From Escherichia coli (lineage in GTDB: Bacteria > Pseudomonadota > Gammaproteobacteria > Enterobacterales > Enterobacteriaceae), in the NCBI RefSeq assembly GCF_017348835.2, contig NZ_CP071375.1: DNA of 64,000 bases, one strand, 5' to 3'. Of the stretch, positions 10,662-22,000 are shown piece after piece. Both the position numbers and the translations under genes were made by a program. Position 1 is the first letter of the stretch; the number at the start of each line of letters is the position of its first letter. The notes under the pieces are model-generated. The model saw only the letters and a program-made list of their open reading frames with translations, made no database searches and was not told the DNA's origin.

Positions 10662-12698
10662 ATGGATACGCCACGCCCACAATTACCAGATTTTCAGTTT
10701 CATCAGAATAACGACAGTTTTACCCTACATTTTCAACAGCGTCTTATTTTAACCCATAGCAAAGATAATCCTTGTTTATGGATTGGTTCAGGTATTGCGG
10801 ATATCGATATGTTCCGCGGCAATTTCAGCATTAAAGATAAACTACAGGAGAAAATTGCGCTTACCGACGCCATCGTCAGCCAGTCACCGGATGGTTGGTT
10901 AATCCATTTCAGCCGTGGTTCTGACATTAGCGCCACGCTGAATATCTCTGCCGACGATCAGGGCCGTTTATTGCTGGAACTACAAAACGACAACCTTAAC
11001 CACAACCGTATCTGGCTGCGCCTTGCCGCTCAACCAGAGGACCATATCTACGGCTGCGGCGAACAGTTTTCCTACTTCGATCTGCGTGGCAAACCGTTCC
11101 CGCTATGGACCAGTGAACAAGGCGTTGGTCGCAACAAACAAACCTATGTCACCTGGCAGGCCGACTGCAAAGAAAATGCGGGCGGCGACTATTACTGGAC
11201 TTTCTTCCCGCAGCCTACGTTTGTCAGCACGCAGAAGTATTACTGCCATGTTGATAACAGTTGCTATATGAACTTCGACTTTAGTGCCCCGGAATACCAT
11301 GAACTGGCGCTGTGGGAAGACAAAGCAACGCTGCGTTTTGAATGTGCTGATACATACATCTCCCTGCTGGAAAAATTAACCGCGCTGCTGGGACGCCAGC
11401 CAGAACTGCCCGACTGGATTTATGACGGAGTAACGCTCGGCATTCAGGGCGGCACTGAGGTGTGCCAGAAGAAACTGGATACCATGCGTAACGCGGGCGT
11501 GAAGGTCAACGGCATCTGGGCGCAGGACTGGTCCGGGATCCGTATGACCTCTTTTGGCAAACGCGTAATGTGGAACTGGAAGTGGAACAGCGAAAACTAC
11601 CCGCAACTGGATTCGCGTATCAAGCAGTGGAACAAAGAGGGCGTGCAGTTCCTTGCCTATATCAACCCGTATGTTGCCAGTGATAAAGATCTCTGCGAAG
11701 AGGCGGCAAAGCGCGGTTATCTGGCAAAAGATGTCGCCGGTGGCGACTATCTGGTGGAGTTTGGCGAGTTCTACGGCGGCGTTGTCGATCTCACCAATCC
11801 GGAAGCCTACGCCTGGTTCAAGGAAGTTATCAAAAAGAACATGATTGAACTCGGCTGCGGCGGCTGGATGGCTGACTTCGGCGAGTATCTGCCCACCGAC
11901 ACGTACCTGCATAACGGCATCAGCGCGGAAATTATGCATAACGCCTGGCCCGCGCTGTGGGCGAAATGTAACTACGAAGCCCTTGAAGAAACGGGCAAGC
12001 TCGGCGAGATCCTCTTCTTTATGCGCGCCGGTTCTACCGGTAGCCAGAAATACTCCACCATGATGTGGGCGGGAGACCAGAACGTCGACTGGAGTCTGGA
12101 CGATGGCCTTGCGTCCGTTGTCCCGGCGGCGCTGTCGCTGGCAATGACCGGACATGGTCTGCATCACAGCGACATTGGCGGTTATACCACCCTGTTTGAG
12201 ATGAAGCGCAGCAAAGAGCTGCTGTTGCGCTGGTGCGATTTCAGCGCCTTCACGCCGATGATGCGCACCCACGAAGGTAACCGTCCGGGCGACAACTGGC
12301 AGTTTGACGGCGACGCGGAAACTATCGCCCATTTCGCCCGTATGACCACCGTCTTCACCACCCTGAAACCTTACCTGAAAGAGGCCGTCGCGCTGAATGC
12401 GAAGTCCGGCCTGCCGGTTATGCGCCCGCTGTTCCTGCATTACGAAGACGACGCGCAGACCTATTCCCTGAAATATCAGTACCTGTTAGGTCGCGACATT
12501 CTGGTTGCTCCGGTACACGAAGAAGGTCGCAGCGACTGGACGCTCTATCTGCCAGAGGATAACTGGGTCCACGCCTGGACCGGAGAAACCTTCCACGGTG
12601 GAGAAATAACTGTTGAAGCGCCCATCGGCAAGCCGCCGGTCTTTTATCGCGCCGACAGCGAATGGGCTGCACTGTTCGCCTCGTTAAAAAGCATCTAA
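10662..12698 (+). CDS. yihQ: GH31 family sulfoquinovosidase
   Basis: 678-aa ORF, glycoside hydrolase family 31 features; recognised YihQ. Confidence 0.88.
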   Translation: MDTPRPQLPDFQFHQNNDSFTLHFQQRLILTHSKDNPCLWIGSGIADIDMFRGNFSIKDKLQEKIALTDAIVSQSPDGWLIHFSRGSDISATLNISADDQGRLLLELQNDNLNHNRIWLRLAAQPEDHIYGCGEQFSYFDLRGKPFPLWTSEQGVGRNKQTYVTWQADCKENAGGDYYWTFFPQPTFVSTQKYYCHVDNSCYMNFDFSAPEYHELALWEDKATLRFECADTYISLLEKLTALLGRQPELPDWIYDGVTLGIQGGTEVCQKKLDTMRNAGVKVNGIWAQDWSGIRMTSFGKRVMWNWKWNSENYPQLDSRIKQWNKEGVQFLAYINPYVASDKDLCEEAAKRGYLAKDVAGGDYLVEFGEFYGGVVDLTNPEAYAWFKEVIKKNMIELGCGGWMADFGEYLPTDTYLHNGISAEIMHNAWPALWAKCNYEALEETGKLGEILFFMRAGSTGSQKYSTMMWAGDQNVDWSLDDGLASVVPAALSLAMTGHGLHHSDIGGYTTLFEMKRSKELLLRWCDFSAFTPMMRTHEGNRPGDNWQFDGDAETIAHFARMTTVFTTLKPYLKEAVALNAKSGLPVMRPLFLHYEDDAQTYSLKYQYLLGRDILVAPVHEEGRSDWTLYLPEDNWVHAWTGETFHGGEITVEAPIGKPPVFYRADSEWAALFASLKSI

Positions 12699-12743
12699 TC
12701 ATGTCCGCCCGTGGGGAAACTCACGGGCACAGGGAGAACAAAG

Positions 12744-14129
12744 ATGAGTCACATCACAACGGAAGATCCAGCAACTTTACGCTTGCCCTTTAAAGAGAAA
12801 CTCTCTTACGGTATTGGCGACCTGGCCTCTAACATTTTGCTGGATATCGGCACGCTTTATCTTTTGAAATTTTATACCGACGTTCTGGGGCTGCCTGGCA
12901 CCTATGGCGGCATTATCTTTTTGATCTCGAAATTCTTTACTGCGTTTACGGATATGGGTACCGGCATCATGCTGGATTCCCGACGCAAGATCGGTCCAAA
13001 AGGTAAGTTCCGTCCTTTTATTCTGTATGCGTCATTCCCGGTCACCTTACTGGCAATCGCCAACTTTATCGGCACGCCGTTTGACGTCACCGGTAAAACG
13101 GTGATGGCCACCATCCTGTTTATGCTCTACGGACTGTTTTTCAGCATGATGAACTGCCCCTATGGCGCAATGGTTCCCGCCATTACCAAAAACCCCAACG
13201 AACGCGCATCGCTGGCGGCATGGCGTCAGGGTGGTGCTACATTGGGCCTGCTGCTGTGTACAGTGGGATTCGTGCCGGTGATGAACCTTATCGAAGGTAA
13301 TCCGCAACTGAGCTACGTTTTCGCCGCCACGCTATTTTCACTGTTCGGCCTGCTGTTTATGTGGATCTGCTACTCGGGCGTGAAAGAGCGTTATGTCGAA
13401 ACCCAACCTGCTAATCAGGCGCAAAAGCCAGGCTTGCTGCAATCTTTCCGCGCAATTGCCGGTAACCGCCCACTGTTCATTCTGTGTATTGCCAACCTCT
13501 GCACCTTAGGGGCGTTTAACGTCAAGCTCGCCATTCAGGTCTATTACACCCAGTACGTGCTTAACGATCCCATCCTGTTGTCGTATATGGGATTTTTTAG
13601 CATGGGCTGTATTTTCATCGGCGTGTTCCTGATGCCTGGCGCAGTTAGACGTTTTGGTAAGAAGAAGGTCTATATCGGCGGCCTGCTGATTTGGGTGTTG
13701 GGCGATCTGCTCAACTATTTCTTCGGCGGCGGTTCGGTCAGCTTCGTGGCGTTCTCCTGCCTGGCATTCTTCGGCTCAGCGTTTGTTAACAGCCTGAACT
13801 GGGCGCTGGTTTCCGACACCGTCGAGTACGGCGAGTGGCGTACCGGCGTTCGTTCGGAAGGTACGGTCTACACCGGTTTCACCTTCTTTCGCAAAGTGTC
13901 TCAGGCGCTGGCTGGTTTCTTCCCCGGCTGGATGCTGACGCAAATCGGTTATGTGCCGAACGTGGCGCAGGCTGACCACACCATTGAAGGGTTGCGCCAG
14001 CTGATCTTCATCTACCCAAGCGCACTGGCGGTAGTCACCATTGTGGCGATGGGCTGCTTCTACAGCCTGAACGAGAAGATGTATGTCCGCATTGTTGAAG
14101 AAATAGAAGCCCGTAAACGCACGGCGTAA
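12744..14129 (+). CDS. yihP: GPH-family (sugar:cation symporter) transporter YihP
   Basis: ORF 12711-14129; start placed at MSHITTED after SD agggaga; 12-TM GPH-type sequence. Confidence 0.82.
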   Translation: MSHITTEDPATLRLPFKEKLSYGIGDLASNILLDIGTLYLLKFYTDVLGLPGTYGGIIFLISKFFTAFTDMGTGIMLDSRRKIGPKGKFRPFILYASFPVTLLAIANFIGTPFDVTGKTVMATILFMLYGLFFSMMNCPYGAMVPAITKNPNERASLAAWRQGGATLGLLLCTVGFVPVMNLIEGNPQLSYVFAATLFSLFGLLFMWICYSGVKERYVETQPANQAQKPGLLQSFRAIAGNRPLFILCIANLCTLGAFNVKLAIQVYYTQYVLNDPILLSYMGFFSMGCIFIGVFLMPGAVRRFGKKKVYIGGLLIWVLGDLLNYFFGGGSVSFVAFSCLAFFGSAFVNSLNWALVSDTVEYGEWRTGVRSEGTVYTGFTFFRKVSQALAGFFPGWMLTQIGYVPNVAQADHTIEGLRQLIFIYPSALAVVTIVAMGCFYSLNEKMYVRIVEEIEARKRTA

Positions 14130-14171
14130 TAATAATAAACAACGCCCTGCGGGGCGTTATAAGGAGTGATT

Positions 14172-14694
14172 ATGTCTGACCATAATCCACTGACATTAAA
14201 ACTGAATCTGCGGGAAAAAATCGCCTATGGTATGGGCGACGTCGGTTCGAATTTAATGCTTAGCATCGGTACTCTGTATCTCCTCAAATTTTATACCGAT
14301 GAATTAGGGATGCCAGCTTACTATGGCGGGATTATCTTTCTGGTGGCGAAGTTTTTTACCGCGTTTACCGATATGCTCACCGGATTTTTACTCGACTCGC
14401 GGAAAAATATTGGGCCTAAAGGCAAATTTCGTCCCTTTATTTTATATGCAGCGGTTCCGGCGGCGTTAATTGCAACGCTCCAGTTTATCGCCACCACCTT
14501 TAGTTTGCCGGTTAAAACGACGATTGCCACCGCGCTGTTTATGATGTTTGGACTTTCATACAGTCTGATGAACTGCTCGTATGGTGCGATGATCCCGGCA
14601 ATTACCAAAAACCCGAATGAGCGCGCGCAGCTCGCGGCTTACCGCCAGGGTGGTGCAACCATAGGGCTATTGATTTGTACCGTGGCGTTTATTC
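14172..14694 (+). pseudogene. yihO: yihO (GPH-family sulfoquinovose transporter) 5' fragment, truncated after about 174 codons by IS629
   Basis: SD aaggag then ATG 14172; paralogous to yihP over the N-terminus; reading frame runs into the IS629 left inverted repeat at 14695 and terminates inside the IS. Confidence 0.8.
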
Positions 14695-14748
14695 TGAACC
14701 GCCCCGGAAATCCTGGAGACTAAACTCCCTGAGAAAGAGGTAAACAGG

Positions 14749-15075
14749 ATGACTAAAAATACTCGTTTTTCCCCCGAAGTCCGTCAGCGGGCGATTCGTA
14801 TGGTTCTGGAAAGTCAGGATGAATATGACTCACAGTGGGCGGCAATTTGTTCCATTGCCCCAAAGATTGGCTGTACGCCGGAGACTCTGCGTGTCTGGGT
14901 TCGCCAGCATGAGCGGGATACCGGGAGTGGTGATGGTGGACTCACCACCGCTGAACGTCAGCGTCTGAAAGAGCTGGAACGTGAAAATCGTGAACTGCGC
15001 CGCAGTAACGATATCCTTCGCCAGGCTTCCGCTTATTTTGCGAAGGCGGAGTTCGACCGCCTCTGGAAAAAATAA
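14749..15075 (+). CDS. IS629 transposase OrfA (HTH/leucine-zipper component)
   Basis: 108-aa [26 protein letters not shown]... recognised as IS629/IS1203-type OrfA; A6 run 15067-15072 is the likely programmed -1 frameshift site. Confidence 0.85.
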
Positions 15076-15962
15076 TGCCACTGCTGGATAAGCTGCGTGA
15101 GCAGTACGGGGGCGGACCGGTATGCAGCGAACTGCATATTGCCCCGTCAACGTATTACCATTGTCAGCAACAGCGACATCATCCGGATAAACGCAGTGCC
15201 CGTGCGCAGCACGATGACTGGCTGAAGAAAGAGATACAGCGCGTATACGATGAAAATCACCAGGTATACGGTGTGCGTAAAGTCTGGCGTCAGTTGTTAC
15301 GGGAAGGTATCAGAGTGGCCAGATGCACTGTGGCACGTCTCATGGCAGTTATGGGACTTGCCGGTGTTCTCCGGGGTAAAAAGGTCCGCACTACCGTCAG
15401 CCGGAAAGCCGTTGCCGCATGCGACCGCGTAAACCGTCAGTTCGTGGCAGAACGTCCAGACCAGTTGTGGGTGGCTGATTTTACCTGGGTAAGCACATGG
15501 CAGGGCTTCGTTTATGTGGCGTTCATCATTGATGTGTTCGCCGGATACATCGTGGGATGGCAGGTCTCATCATCCATGGAAACAACATTCGTGCTGGATG
15601 CACTGGAGCAGGCGTTGTGGGCCCGTCGGCCGTCCGGCACAATCCATCACAGTGATAAAGGTTCTCAGTATGTATCGCTGGCCTACACGCAGCGGCTTAA
15701 GGAAGCCGGATTACTGGCATCAACAGGGAGTACTGGCGACTCGTATGACAACGCGATGGCTGAGAGCATCAATGGTCTTTACAAAGCGGAGGTAATACAC
15801 CGTAAGAGCTGGAAAAACCGGACAGAAGTGGAACTGGCCACACTAACGTGGGTGGACTGGTATAACAATCGACGATTGCTGGAAAGGCTGGGCCATATTC
15901 CTCCGGCAGAAGCAGAAAAAGCTTATTATGCTTCCATCGGAAATAATGATCTGGCAGCCTGA
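15075..15962 (+). CDS. IS629 transposase OrfB (DDE catalytic domain)
   Basis: 295-aa ORF in -1 frame relative to OrfA; ATG overlaps OrfA stop (TAATG). Confidence 0.85.
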   Translation: MPLLDKLREQYGGGPVCSELHIAPSTYYHCQQQRHHPDKRSARAQHDDWLKKEIQRVYDENHQVYGVRKVWRQLLREGIRVARCTVARLMAVMGLAGVLRGKKVRTTVSRKAVAACDRVNRQFVAERPDQLWVADFTWVSTWQGFVYVAFIIDVFAGYIVGWQVSSSMETTFVLDALEQALWARRPSGTIHHSDKGSQYVSLAYTQRLKEAGLLASTGSTGDSYDNAMAESINGLYKAEVIHRKSWKNRTEVELATLTWVDWYNNRRLLERLGHIPPAEAEKAYYASIGNNDLAA

Positions 15963-16004
15963 GTTCACAGATAAAACACTCTCCAGGAAACCCGGGGCGG
16001 TTCA

Positions 16005-16223
16005 ATGGGCAGAATTTTACTCGATTTATCCGATGAGGTGATTAAGCGACTTGATGATCTCGAGGTGCAGCGTAATCTTCCTCGTGCGGACCTATTAAGG
16101 GAAGCGGTAGATCAATACCTGATAAATCAATCGCAAACAGCAAGAACCAGTGTTCCTGGCATCTGGCAAGGGTGTGAGGAAGATGGTGTCGAATATCAGC
16201 GTAAGCTGCGCGAGGAATGGTAA
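16005..16223 (+). CDS. yiiE: small ribbon-helix-helix (CopG-like) protein YiiE
   Basis: 72-aa [24 protein letters not shown]...; ATG immediately follows the last base of IS629. Confidence 0.65.
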
Positions 16224-16272
16224 TGGGAAAAAATGATGTCAATCAGATTGCTGACAACGTGCGCGTTGTTCA

Positions 16273-16372
16273 TGCCGGATGCGGCGTGAACGCCTTATCC
16301 GGCCTACAAAGTCGTATAAATTCAATGTATTGCAGTTTATTGGTAGGCCTGATAAGCACAGCGCATCAGGCA
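16273..16372. repeat. REP/BIME palindromic units (pair)
   Basis: gccggatgcggcgtgaacgccttatccggcctaca and ggtaggcctgataagcacagcgcatcaggca read directly. Confidence 0.75.
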
Positions 16373-16535
16373 ATCTTACGCTTGTCATCAGTCTCATGCC
16401 CATAACCTTATTGATGTGGTGGTGGGTAAATTGGCGGCATAGCTTGAGGTGGTAACGCGGAATACGAGAGATGGTGTCGTCACACCCTATGAGCTGTAAT
16501 CCGGGCGACCAGCGCCACCCGGAAAACGTCAGAGA

Positions 16536-17465
16536 TTACTCCCCTTCACCCGGAAACAGGAACGGGTTGATGGAACTGCGGGCATAGCCTTCTTGCTCCA
16601 TTCGTGCGTCCAGTACCAGAGAGGCGAGGTCATCTGCTACGGCTTCGATTTTTGGATCTTTTTCCTGATAGAGAATTTTCAGGTAAGTGCCGCAGTCATC
16701 GCAGCTTTCGGCTTTAATCGCGGCCTGTTCGTCATCCAGCGACCAGTAATGCAGTTTGCCGCTCTGCTCGCAGTTGCTGCATTTTACGCGCACTACGTGC
16801 CATTCGGTTTCACACAGGTTGCAGTGCAGGTAACGCAGACCCTGAGTGGTGCCAATTTGCACCATGCTGGACACCGGCATAGAGCCACATACCGGGCAAT
16901 ATTGACGTTGTTCGCCGTATTCAGCGCGGGCTTTGCCGGGGATCAGATTGGCCATCTGCGCCCAGTAGAGCGACAGCGCAGCCCAGATAAACGGCGCTTT
17001 ATCGCTGCTGACGGACGAGAAATCAGAGGCAAACAGCGCGCTGGCCATATCTTCCAGCTCCTGAGTCGATGCCTTCTCCAGATTCTCAATCACTGCCAGC
17101 GCCGGGCCGCTCATTTCAGGTTTCAGCTCAGCAATTAGCGCCATCAGCAGCTTTTGCCAGTGCTTATCACGCGGCAGAACGTGAATATCCAGCGGGGGCT
17201 TGCCCTGTGCGCTGGCTTCTTTAATGCGCGCGGTCAGATCCATCTCCAGCGGATGGTCGTACAGCACCACTTCCTGGGCGTGGGCGATAAGCGCAGCAAA
17301 GCGCAGGTAATCACCCAGCGGATTATTTTCTGCCAGCTCGCGCAGACGCTCGGCGCGGCGGTTGTATAAATTCTTGAGCCGAGGGAACAATAACGGCGGA
17401 ATCATATCCGCCGTACGTTTCTCGCTCGAACCCAGCTCATCTTGCGGGATTATGCGAATACTCAT
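16536..17465 (-). CDS. fdhE: formate dehydrogenase accessory protein FdhE
   Basis: 309-aa ORF with multiple CxxC pairs; recognised FdhE. Confidence 0.92.
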
Positions 17466-18097
17466 TCAGCTTTCTTTTCCGTTGTCTTGCGGACCTCACG
17501 GTACCAGCGCGGGTGATGTTTCTTCGCCCAGGCGCTGGTAACCCATCCTTCCACCATGGCGGTAATCGTGCCTTTCACCCAAAGGGCGGCGTAGATATGC
17601 ACCATGATAACCACAATTAACGCCACTGCGGCAAATGAATGCAGCATTAACGCGAATCGGATCACCGGGATTGAGAAAGCAGGCGCAAAATAAGGACGCC
17701 AGATAATCACGCCGCTCACCAGCAGCAGAACCAGGAAAATAATCGCCGCCCAGAAAACGCATTTCTGACCGAAGTTATAACGCCCGGTGTCACCTACTTC
17801 CTCGTTGACGACGATCTTACGAATATTCTTCGCCCAAAAGATATCATCCCGATTGATTAGGTTGTGATGCCAGTAACGGAAAAACATGATGATGAACGAG
17901 GCAAACATAACCACGCCGACAAACGGGTGCAGAATTCGCGCCAGCTGCGGTGTGCCCATGATTTGCATCAACCAGTTGAAGGACGGGAACAAAAAGCCCA
18001 GCCCGCTCACCGCCGCCAGGATGAAGCAGAAGGCGGTGATCCAGTGGTTGATACGTTCCGGCGCGGTGTAGCGCACGATGGTGTCACGTCGTTTCAT
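17462..18097 (-). CDS. fdoI: formate dehydrogenase-O cytochrome b556 subunit
   Basis: 211-aa 4-TM ORF; overlaps fdhE and fdoH by 4 bp. Confidence 0.92.
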
Positions 18098-18996
18098 TTG
18101 CGCTCCTCGTCTTTCTCTTCGTGCAGATTATTCTCTTCCTCATCCGCACGGTTCGGACCGACACCCACGTAGTGGAAGATACTGGCTGCGAAGGTAGCCG
18201 CAAAGCCAACAGCTGCGAGCGGTTTCCAGATGCCTTTCCAGAATTTCACGGTTTCGCTGATTTCCGGGTTCTCCGGCAAGCCATGATACAGATTTGGCTT
18301 GTCAGCATGGTGCAGCACGTACATAACGTGTGTACCACCGACGCCTGCCGGATCGTACAGACCCGCATTGTCGTAACCGCGGGTTTTCAGCTCAGCAACG
18401 CGCTCGCTCGCCAGCGTTTTCATCGACTCTTTCGTACCGAAGTGAATCGCGCCCGTTGGGCAGGTCTTCACGCAGGCTGGTTCTTGCCCAACCACCACGC
18501 GGTCAACGCACAGCGTACATTTGTAGACGCGGTTGTCTTCCGGGTTGAGGCGCGGAATGTCGAACGGACAGCCCGCAATGCAATAACCGCAGCCAATGCA
18601 CTGCTCGGACTGGAAGTCGACGATACCGTTGGCATACTGAATAATTGCACCTTCCGCCGGGCACGCTTTCAGGCAGCCTGGATCGGAACAGTGCATACAG
18701 CCGTCTTTGCGGATCAGCCATTCCAGTTTGTCGTTCTGCTCCACTTCTGAGAAGCGCATCACCGTCCACGATTTGGCGCTTAAATCATTGGGGTTGTCGT
18801 ACACCCCAATGTTATTGCCGACGGTATCGCGAATGTCGTTCCACTCTGAACACGCCACCTGACAGGCTTTACAGCCGATACAGGTGGTGACGTCGATGAG
18901 TTTCGCCACTTCTTCCTGGAAGTCCCGCGCCTGAGGCGCGGGGGTCAGACCGTTAGTCGCGGAACGACGAATGATATCTTGCGATTGATAAGCCAT
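18094..18996 (-). CDS. fdoH: formate dehydrogenase-O iron-sulfur subunit
   Basis: 300-aa ORF with four ferredoxin-type CxxCxxCxxxCP clusters. Confidence 0.92.
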
Positions 18997-19008
18997 ATGT
19001 CGTCTCCG

Positions 19009-22000
19009 TTACACCTTTTCCACATTCACAAGGAAGGACTTAAACTCCGGCGTCTGCGTGTTCGCATCACCAACGAATGGCGTTAACGTATTGGCAATAA
19101 AGCCTTTTTTAGCTACGCCTTCATAGCCCCAGTGAATCGGAATACCGATGGTATCGATATCTTTGCCGTTCGCTTTCAGCGTGCGAATACGTTTGGTCAC
19201 CACCGCTTTGGCTTTGATATAGCCACGGTTGGAGGAGACTTTCACGGTATCGCCCTGGGCAATGCCAAGTTTATTCGCCAGCGACTCACCGATTTCCACA
19301 AACTGCTCTGGCTGCAAAATCGCGTTCAACAGCGCGTGTTTGGTCCAGTAGTGGAAGTGCTCGGTCAGACGATAGGTGGTTCCGACATACGGGAACTTAT
19401 CGGCTTTACCCAATGCTTCGGCGTCGTCTTTAAAGATTCGCGCAGCCGGGTTCGAGATAACGTTTGGATGCAGCGGGTTAGTTCCCAGCGGCGTTTCAAA
19501 CGGCTCGTAGTGTTCCGGGAACGGACCTTCCGCCATCTTATCGAGGGCAAACAGACGTCCCATGCCTTCCTGCTGCATGATAAACGGCCCGACGCCGCTG
19601 CCCGGAGGCGCTGCGCTGTAGTCCGGAATATCCCAGCCGGTCCACTTAGTGCCGTCCCATTTCAGCAACTGACGCTTCGGATCCCACGGGTTACCCTGCG
19701 GATCTGCGGAGGCGCGGTTATACAGAATGCGGCGGTTAAGCGGCCATGCCCATGCCCAGCCCAGTGTGTTACCGAGGCCAGACGGATCGGCGTTATCACG
19801 GCGTGCCATCTGGTTGCCTTCCGGCGTCCAGCTACCGGCGAAAATCCAGCAGCCACAGGAGGTTGTACCATCATCGCGCAGTTGGGCGAACGAGCTAAGT
19901 TGTTGGCCTTTCTTGACGATAACCGCACCGGTTGCCGGATCGGTAATATCGGCCAGCGCCTTACCGTTGCTCTCCATCGCTACTTCTTCCGACTTCGGCT
20001 CATGCGGAATGGCGTAGTTCCATGTCATGTTCAGCACCTGGTCCGGGTTCGCGCCACCCTGTTCGGCATACATCTTGCGCAAGCGCAGGAAGATACCGGA
20101 GAGGATCTCGCCGTCAGTCAGCGCAATCCCCGGGGCGTCCGCACCTTTCCAGTGCCACTGTAACCAGCGACCTGAGTTAACGATTGAACCGTTCTCTTCT
20201 GCGAAGCAGGTCGATGGCAGACGGAACACTTCGGTCTGGATCTTCGACGAGTCAACTTCGTTCAGCTCACCGTGGTTCTGCCAGAAGTTAGAGGTTTCAG
20301 TGTTCAGCGGGTCGATGGTGACGAGGAACTTCAGTTTCGACAGACAACCGATCACTTTGTTTTTGTTCGGGAATGAGGCAACAGGGTTAAAGCCCTGGCA
20401 GATATAGCCATTGACCTTGCCCTCTTTCATCATCTCGAAGTATTGCAGGACGTCGTAGCCTTTATCCCACTTCGGCAACCAGTCAAAGCCCCAGCTATTT
20501 TCCGCCGTCGCTTTATCACCAAAGAAGGCCTTCATCATGGAGACGAAGAATTTCGGGTAGTTGCCCCAGTAGTTTACCTGGCCTTCCAGCAGCGGTTTTG
20601 GCGTGTTGGCGGTAAGGTAGGTTTGCAGATCGGTCTGCTTCTCGCTTGGCAGCGTCATGTAACCCGGCAGGCTCTGCGACAGCAGCCCCAGGTCCGTCAG
20701 CCCCTGAATATTGGAGTGACCGCGCAGGGCGTTAACGCCGCCGCCTGCCATCCCCATATTGCCGAGCAGCAGCTGGATCATCGCCATCGTACGAATGTTC
20801 TGCGCACCAACGGAGTGTTGCGTCCAGCCGAGGGCATACAGGAACGAGGCAGTTTTATCGTGAGCACTGGTTTCTGCGATGTATTCGCTGACTTTCAGGA
20901 ACGCGTCTTTTGGCGTACCACAGATGTTTTCAACCACATCTGGCGTGTAGCGGGAAACGTGCTGTTTCAGCAAGTTCCACACGCAGCGCGGATGTTGCAG
21001 CGTGGTATCGCGTTTGGCGAAGCCGTTTTCGTCCAGTTCGTAAGTCCAGGAGGATTTATCGTACTTGCGTTTTTCCGCGTCATAGCCGGTGAACAGGCCA
21101 TCTTCAAAGCCGTAATCCTCACGCACGATCAGGCTGGCGTTGGTATAGGCTTCGGTGTATTCGCGGTTGAATTTTTCATTGTTCAGCAGGTACAGCAATA
21201 CGCCTGACAGGAAAGCAATGTCAGTACCGGAACGAATAGGGGCATAGTAGTCAGCCACCGCCGCCGTACGCGTAAAGCGAGGATCGATCACAATCAGCTT
21301 CGCGCCATTGTGAATTTTGGCTTCCATCGCCCAGCGGAACCCGACCGGGTGAGCTTCAGCGGCGTTACCGCCCATCACCACGACGAGGTTGGCGTTCTTG
21401 ATGTCGACCCAGTGGTTGGTCATCGCACCGCGACCAAATGTTGGAGCAAGACTTGCTACCGTTGGTCCGTGTCAGACACGCGCCTGGTTGTCGACCGCGA
21501 GCATACCCAGCGCGCGGGAGAATTTTTGCGTTAAATAGCCGGTTTCGTTACTCGACGCGGAAGCACACAGCATCCCGGTGGAGAGCCAGCGGTTAACAGT
21601 CACGCCTTCGGCGTTTTGCGCAATGTAGTTAGCATCGCGGTCTTCTTTCATCAGTTTGGCGATGCGATCAAACGCCTCTTCCCAACTGATTTGCTGCCAT
21701 TTATCAGAACCTGGCGCACGGTATTCCGGAAACTTCAGACGGCTTTCGGAGTGGATGAAATCCACCAGGCCAGCGCCTTTCGGACAAAGTGCACCGCGGT
21801 TGACCGGGTGATCCGGATCGCCTTCGATATGGAAGATAGATGCTTTGGCGTTTTTTGCTCCGTCACCGAGGCTGTACATCAACAGCCCACAGCCTACGGA
21901 ACAATAGGTGCAGGTATTACGGGTTTCGCGGGTGCGCAGCAGTTTATACTGCCGGGTTTCCGCGAGTGCTACGCTGGGTGCAAAACCCAGTGCCGCTGCC

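Follow-up and report, generated by a model that had tools for sequence, protein, structure and literature searches.

IS629, a member of the IS3 family of which IS1203 and IS3411 are isoforms, is known from E. coli and Shigella as a 1,310-bp element with TG...CA ends, 25-nt terminal inverted repeats, an orfA/orfB pair read by frameshifting with an ALIL pseudoknot, and 3-bp target duplications. It is present in many copies per genome, reportedly 17 in the O157:H7 strain Sakai and 21 in FRIK804. Target duplications of 3-4 bp have been described for IS629, and in O157 genomes matched flanks are missing from over half of its copies (PMC3271280). For the IS3-family elements IS911, IS2 and IS3, transposition has been established to follow a copy-out-paste-in route through a double-stranded circle; in IS911 and IS2 the right end carries an outward-directed -35 element, and hybrid promoters are possible (PMC9330008). 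Recombination between inverted IS copies is a common route to chromosomal inversions, and the inversions usually reported are of replichore scale. Here we describe a locus in E. coli strain PE164 (NZ_CP114128.1), a pig isolate from Nanjing, at which two copies of IS629 in inverse orientation bound a small flipped segment, and at which one of these copies ends directly at an ATG at the 5' end of a short gene, yiiF.

Within the window, by which we mean the whole 64,000-nucleotide stretch of E. coli DNA that was analysed, the first of the two elements (copy A, Table 1) lies immediately upstream of this gene. Read from the sequence, copy A starts with TGAACCGCCCCGG and ends with CCGGGGCGGTTCA; its final letters, GGGGCGGTTCA, run up to position 16004, and the ATG at 16005 comes directly next. 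A preliminary description of this DNA, made from the sequence alone, had reported this abutment, and its coordinates agree with the sequence, the list of open reading frames and the inverted repeats. The two 25-nt terminal repeats are imperfect, being 88% complementary. Over all 1,310 bp copy A is 99.5% identical to the IS629-annotated copy in phage BP-4795 (AJ556162.1), which served as the reference for identity in place of the ISfinder entry. The transposase scores 308 bits against the NCBIfam model transpos_IS3 (cut-off 160; 1.1e-91) and is labelled by PGAP as an IS3 family transposase with programmed frameshift, and the overlap between orfA and orfB holds an A-run, GGAAAAAATAA. By its size and ends, its orfA-orfB frameshift, its 3-bp target duplication and its near-identity to annotated IS629, copy A is an IS629 element of the IS3 family. 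The element itself is no different from known IS629; only its insertion sites, the yiiF ATG and yihO, are specific to PE164.

Table 1. Features of the IS629-yiiF locus, in window coordinates.
Feature	Position	Strand	Basis or remark
Inverted segment (yihO' ... fabY ... yiiE), 17,328 bp, part within the window	1-14694		A further 2,634 bp to the left, up to copy B
TauE/SafE-family sulfite exporter gene	9679-10554	+	Between yihQ and yihR in the sulfoquinovose cluster; lacking in K-12
yihO 5' fragment, 174 codons	14172-14694	+	Truncated by the IS; open frame runs to a stop in the IS, 14721-14723
TTC, target-site duplication copy of the yihO insertion	14692-14694	+	Partner follows the right end of copy B
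IS629 copy A	14695-16004	+	1,310 bp; TG...CA ends, TGAACC...GGTTCA; IS3 family
IRL of copy A	14695-14719	+	Inverted-repeat search
Transposase, orfA+orfB	14749-15962	+	Joined by -1 frameshift
orfA, 108 aa	14749-15075	+	Pfam HTH_Tnp_1, 2.9e-12
ALIL frameshift pseudoknot	15030-15146	+	Rfam, 116 bits against a cut-off of 50
orfB, 295 aa	15075-15962	+	Pfam rve (DDE domain), 1.6e-26; stop codon 15960-15962
IRR of copy A	15980-16004	+	Adjoins the yiiF ATG
G-rich stretch GGGGCGGT, candidate Shine-Dalgarno-like	15994-16001	+	Inside the IRR; computed anti-Shine-Dalgarno pairing, ~3 nt from the ATG
ATG, target-site duplication copy of the yiiF insertion	16005-16007	+	Serves as yiiF start in the K-12 annotation; ninth codon in the 80-aa model
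yiiF remainder, 72 codons	16005-16223	+	RefSeq annotation; complete putative ribbon-helix-helix (CopG-type) domain
vapC 3' remnant (PIN-domain toxin pseudogene)	16371-16496	+	tblastn with E20 VapC residues 76-124, 45% identity, E = 3e-5

The gene that begins at this ATG had been named yiiE in the preliminary description. That name is wrong: the RefSeq annotation of PE164 calls the gene yiiF, and in the blastn alignment window position 16005 corresponds to K-12 4079751, where b3890 yiiF begins. The yiiE gene is a separate 72-aa paralogue of yiiF that now lies about 19 kb away, beyond the window. When a 200-bp query across the IS/yiiF junction was compared with 5,426 complete E. coli genomes, a match was found in exactly one, that of PE164, and both IS629 junctions, at yiiF and at yihO, are unique to this strain in the same set.

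A simple insertion of the element upstream of the gene, as first proposed, describes only part of the structure. The insertion itself stands; what had been missed is that copy A bounds a 17.3-kb inversion and that its left flank is a fragment of yihO. In a blastn comparison with K-12, window positions 16005-19989 are collinear with K-12 4079751-4083752 and positions 249-14694 are inverted (K-12 4078913-4065244), the break in collinearity falling exactly at K-12 4079751, where b3890 starts. Window position 14694 corresponds to K-12 4065244, inside yihO (4064363-4065766), and PGAP labels the truncated gene at this point as an MFS transporter, incomplete, missing its C-terminus. A second IS629 copy (copy B) was located in the inverse orientation at 4836090-4837399 of the PE164 record, 2.6 kb beyond the left window edge, and it differs from copy A by one mismatch in 1,310 nt (position 418, G/T). 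Copy B is flanked by yiiE and the yiiF upstream region at one end and by the 3' part of yihO at the other end. A simple deletion between yihO and yiiF was considered as well, and is ruled out by the yih genes, which stand opposite to their K-12 orientation. With near-identical copies in inverse orientation bounding a flipped but otherwise collinear segment, and with target duplications exchanged between them, the arrangement is an IS-mediated inversion of the kind described in other chromosomes. Unlike the replichore-scale inversions that are usually reported, the one in PE164 is small and local, and is without known phenotype.

The exchange of the target duplications can be read directly from the flanks. 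Copy A is preceded by ...GCGTTTATTC, which ends in TTTATTC, and followed by ATGGGCAGA..., and copy B is preceded by ...GGTATGGATATG and followed by TTCCGTTGC.... The 3-bp flanks are swapped, with ATG to the right of copy A and, some 19 kb away and outside the window, to the left of copy B, and TTC to the left of copy A and to the right of copy B. When the inversion is undone, perfect 3-bp duplications appear at both sites, ATG/ATG at yiiF and TTC/TTC at yihO; the probability that two such flank matches arise by chance is about (1/64)^2. The corresponding empty sites were found in other genomes. Strains F2_81, a pig isolate, and GDSC2227PM contain the yiiF site, ...GGATATGGGCAGA..., at 100% identity and with a single ATG; for the yihO site, ...TTTATTCCGTTGC..., with a single TTC, matches of 100% identity occur in many genomes, among them K-12. 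The reconstructed flanks and the verified empty sites identify the ATG at 16005 as the right-hand member of the 3-bp target-site duplication made by IS629, so its abutment with the IS end is no coincidence that would require statistics. An ATG abutting an IS end may be a target-site duplication that gene callers automatically take as a start codon, and unmatched IS flanks are a sign of a rearrangement whose partner can lie beyond the stretch being read.

Our explanation for the locus as a whole, to which we assign a probability of roughly 0.85, is that IS629 inserted at the yiiF ATG and in yihO, that the DNA between the two copies was inverted, and that yiiF was left without its own promoter and with read-through as its only source of transcripts. 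According to this scheme, one IS629 would have inserted at the ATG triplet at the 5' end of yiiF, duplicating it, and another would have inserted in the opposite orientation inside yihO, duplicating TTC. Homologous recombination between the inverted copies would flip the 17.3 kb between them. Copy A would in this way come to stand between the 5' part of yihO, to the left, and ATG-yiiF, to the right, and the yiiF promoter region, the native Shine-Dalgarno sequence and the first eight codons would be left beside the left end of copy B. The final structure records neither the order of these events nor whether the segment was flipped by recombination or in a single transposition step.

A single step would require only one pre-existing IS629, for example in yihO, which attacks the yiiF ATG so that the second copy and the inversion arise together from one intramolecular transposition. 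Such an inversion-type event predicts inverted copies, a flipped segment and duplications split between the copies. The two-step route predicts the same final structure, so that the structure does not choose between them. Inversion is listed in a review as an outcome of intramolecular IS events (PMC9330008), and the near-identity of copies A and B would fit a common origin in one event. Neither insertion is found in any other complete genome, and no genome with only one of the two was present among the 5,426 examined, which again would suit a one-step origin. However, the double-stranded circle established for IS911, IS2 and IS3 gives a simple insertion on re-integration rather than an inversion, recombination between inverted copies commonly produces such inversions, and the difference at position 418 is easier to obtain from different donors among the ~32 IS629 copies in PE164. 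Because of the circle route of the IS3 family and the one-base difference between the copies we favour two insertions followed by recombination, and consider a one-step origin unlikely.

It could also be argued that the chromosome in truth carries two simple insertions, and that the inverted order reflects a faulty assembly or just one of the states of a mixed population. Near-identical inverted repeats of 1.3 kb are a classic source of mis-joins, and the inverted arrangement occurs in one genome only. Against this, the PE164 chromosome is deposited as finished and circular, in a second assembly version, and long reads span 1.3 kb easily, leaving only a very slim chance for this explanation. 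Since either recombination or a mis-join would fall inside the IS, the junction between the IS and ATG-yiiF is unchanged either way.

The insertion in PE164 also exposes a discrepancy in the reference annotations of yiiF, where starts giving 72 and 80 aa are both in use. In the curated K-12 annotation yiiF starts at the equivalent of the ATG at 16005 and encodes 72 aa. PGAP, in uninterrupted relatives, starts the gene 24 nt upstream, giving an 80-aa protein that begins MNSLAG(I/M)D-MGRILL.... The preliminary description had allowed for an annotated start further downstream, which would have left a native ribosome-binding site intact; neither annotation places it there. Homologues in Citrobacter, Pseudocitrobacter, Salmonella, Enterobacter and Serratia are 80-82 aa long, and in the alignment all of them keep the open frame and the upstream Met, with G6, D8 and M9 invariant. 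The comparison suggests that the 80-aa protein is probably the ancestral form of yiiF.

We compared the Shine-Dalgarno sequences of the two start codons by computed pairing. A GGAGG (-10.6 kcal/mol) stands before the upstream ATG in E20, which carries a vapC-linked allele, and in the K-12/PE164 lineage the same ATG is nearly without Shine-Dalgarno pairing (-2.2 to -3.5 kcal/mol). For the second ATG, the native context provides AGGT 6 nt upstream (-6.8 kcal/mol). The 72-aa form may already have been the main product before the insertion, and the insertion would then have left the coding sequence whole, without truncating it. G6 could likewise be invariant on account of the AGGT Shine-Dalgarno sequence instead of constraint on the protein. 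Under either start the window retains in full the putative ribbon-helix-helix domain, which Pfam matches to residues 15-47 of the 80-aa protein. The orphaned 5' end of yiiF can still be seen at copy B (record 4836063-4836092) as a 9-codon open reading frame, MNSLAGMDM, which is stopped by a TGA of the IS terminus, and the yiiF promoter region at this end points into the transposase gene of copy B.

The inversion bears on how yiiF can now be expressed. The loss of the native promoter and ribosome-binding site, as originally proposed, is confirmed: the promoter region, AGGT and the eight upstream codons of the 80-aa model are all separated from the gene. The suggestion that the IS end might provide an outward promoter in their place finds no support in the sequence, whether from a consensus scan, from hybrid sites scored with a position weight matrix (PWM) or from a simulated transposition circle. 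The idea that the right end of IS629 acts as an outward or hybrid promoter for yiiF, possibly activating it, draws on the precedent of IS911 and IS2 (PMC9330008), since here too an IS3-family right end lies directly upstream of a gene and in the right orientation. A -35-like hexamer, TTCACA, matching at five of six positions, is indeed present at 15965-15970, but it has no acceptable -10 at 15-19 nt. Unlike the IS911/IS2-type promoters, copy A shows no detectable outward -35/-10 and leaves no room for a flanking -10 before the start codon. A -35 at the terminus would stand only 4 nt from the ATG, and because the IS end directly abuts the ATG, any -10 supplied by the flank would lie inside the coding sequence, so that the transcript would begin within the gene and the mRNA would miss this start.

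The scans themselves used a crude sigma-70 consensus and a rough PWM, which can miss weak or non-sigma-70 promoters, and within this scope the consensus found no promoter-like site on either strand between 14600 and 16600. Neither method found an outward -35 in the terminal right inverted repeat. By the PWM, no site in the final 150 nt of the IS exceeded 4.7 bits, and hybrids between the IRR and its flank reached 0.7 bits at best, against a 99th percentile of 1.5 for the window. In the simulated IRR-IRL circle no IS911-type junction promoter was found, the best site reaching 3.9 bits and falling entirely within the right end. By the same PWM, the native yiiE-yiiF spacer from which the gene has been separated contains sites of 7-8 bits, including an exact TATAAT. 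A literature search for an outward promoter specific to IS629 returned nothing. Taking the scans and the spacing together, we regard a promoter in the right end of IS629 as highly unlikely.

Read-through remains as the source of yiiF transcripts in our preferred explanation. From the orfB stop (15962) to the ATG the + strand shows no terminator-like site, so that read-through from the transposase gene or from the co-directional yihQ-yihP-yihO' is possible. Transcripts are known to cross an IS629 inserted in stx2 (PMC7430833). That precedent is driven by an anti-terminated phage late promoter and may not be transferable to the yiiF locus. An in-frame fusion of orfB to yiiF was examined and rejected, as the orfB stop codon is at 15960-15962, and the frame of yiiF is closed by a TAA (15972-15974) and offers no other start before 16005. 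Transcription of yiiF, if any, would come by read-through from the IS629 transposase gene or from yihQ-yihP-yihO'. Ribosomes would initiate at the ATG restored by the duplication, with some assistance from a G-rich stretch that happens to lie in the IS end, GGGGCGGT. The computed pairing of this stretch with the 16S anti-Shine-Dalgarno is -7.2 kcal/mol, compared with -6.8 kcal/mol for the native AGGT of the same ATG, and about 7% of random 20-mers from the window reach -6 kcal/mol. The predicted accessibility of the IS-derived ATG context is similar to that of the native one. Judged from these sequence features, expression of yiiF is now most likely reduced, weak and dependent on read-through.

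One could go further and see the IS629 right end as a portable translation-initiation region, composed of GGGGCGGT and the regenerated ATG, and the 17.3-kb segment as a reversible switch. In one orientation yiiF would be under read-through from the sulfoquinovose-inducible yihQ-yihP-yihO', and in the other under its own promoter, acting through the IS. This is speculative, and of all the explanations considered here we hold it to be the least probable.

What the loss of expression would mean depends on the nature of YiiF. Like orphan antitoxins of type II vapBC systems, YiiF appears to be a small ribbon-helix-helix protein whose partner, vapC, is intact elsewhere and present as fragments here. 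In E20 the yiiF homologue overlaps an intact PIN-domain vapC (124 aa) by 1 nt. In the window an intact overlapping vapC is absent beside yiiF, and only the 3' remnant and a few 5' codons were found. Within the gap between yiiF and fdhE (16224-16535), what is left of vapC comprises its first few codons, located behind the yiiF stop (TAATGG...), and its 3' third at 16371-16496; the middle of the gene has been replaced by REP-like palindromic sequence at ~16270-16370. From these comparisons yiiF appears to be the orphan antitoxin of a decayed vapBC pair. Unlike in established vapBC antitoxins, the antitoxin role of YiiF is putative, and the PE164 allele scores just below threshold against Pfam RHH_1, with 20.2 bits for a gathering score of 20.5 (E = 5.7e-4). 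Most YiiF homologues carry PF01402. Because yiiF would be the leftover antitoxin of a decayed pair, the effect of the insertion on it is probably neutral, and the loss of its expression probably without consequence.

Our literature search on the function or start site of yiiF returned incidental mentions only. One table of E. coli transcription factors places YiiF in the AraC family (PMC4797297), which is a misfit with a ribbon-helix-helix (CopG-type) sequence of 72-80 aa. In E. coli DEC14D a 104-aa 'putative IS1 encoded protein' aligns to YiiF with 97% identity across 74% of the query, and this match suggests an independent insertion of IS1 at the 5' end of yiiF in that strain.

In biological terms the case is minor, a strain-specific instance of gene disruption with target duplication and of inversion between inverted copies. 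The genes affected are yihO, encoding a sulfoquinovose transporter, and yiiF, an uncharacterised, putative leftover antitoxin. A known element shows its known behaviour here, and the damage to this one pig isolate of E. coli is of a kind that is routine for mobile elements. Around 32 places in the PE164 genome match the IS629 right end, and 27 do so in the relative F2_81. Set beside the published 17 and 21 copies of the O157:H7 strains, the number of ends in PE164 suggests an expansion of IS629 outside the classical EHEC lineages.

Several further observations concern the surrounding genes. The yihO gene is split into the 174-codon 5' fragment, in the region 14172-14723, and a 3' fragment beside ompL, and yihN nearby is annotated as a pseudogene with an internal stop. 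Uptake in the sulfoquinovose pathway may be impaired in PE164. The sulfite exporter gene of the same cluster (Table 1) sits in a gap of the K-12 alignment at window positions 9609-10603. At the left edge of the window, positions 1-313 and the sequence beyond (record 4833143-4834957) hold a truncated hypothetical gene and a 304-aa 'transposase' gene. This pair lies between fabY and yiiE in PE164, F2_81 and E20, and is absent from K-12 and E. coli B.
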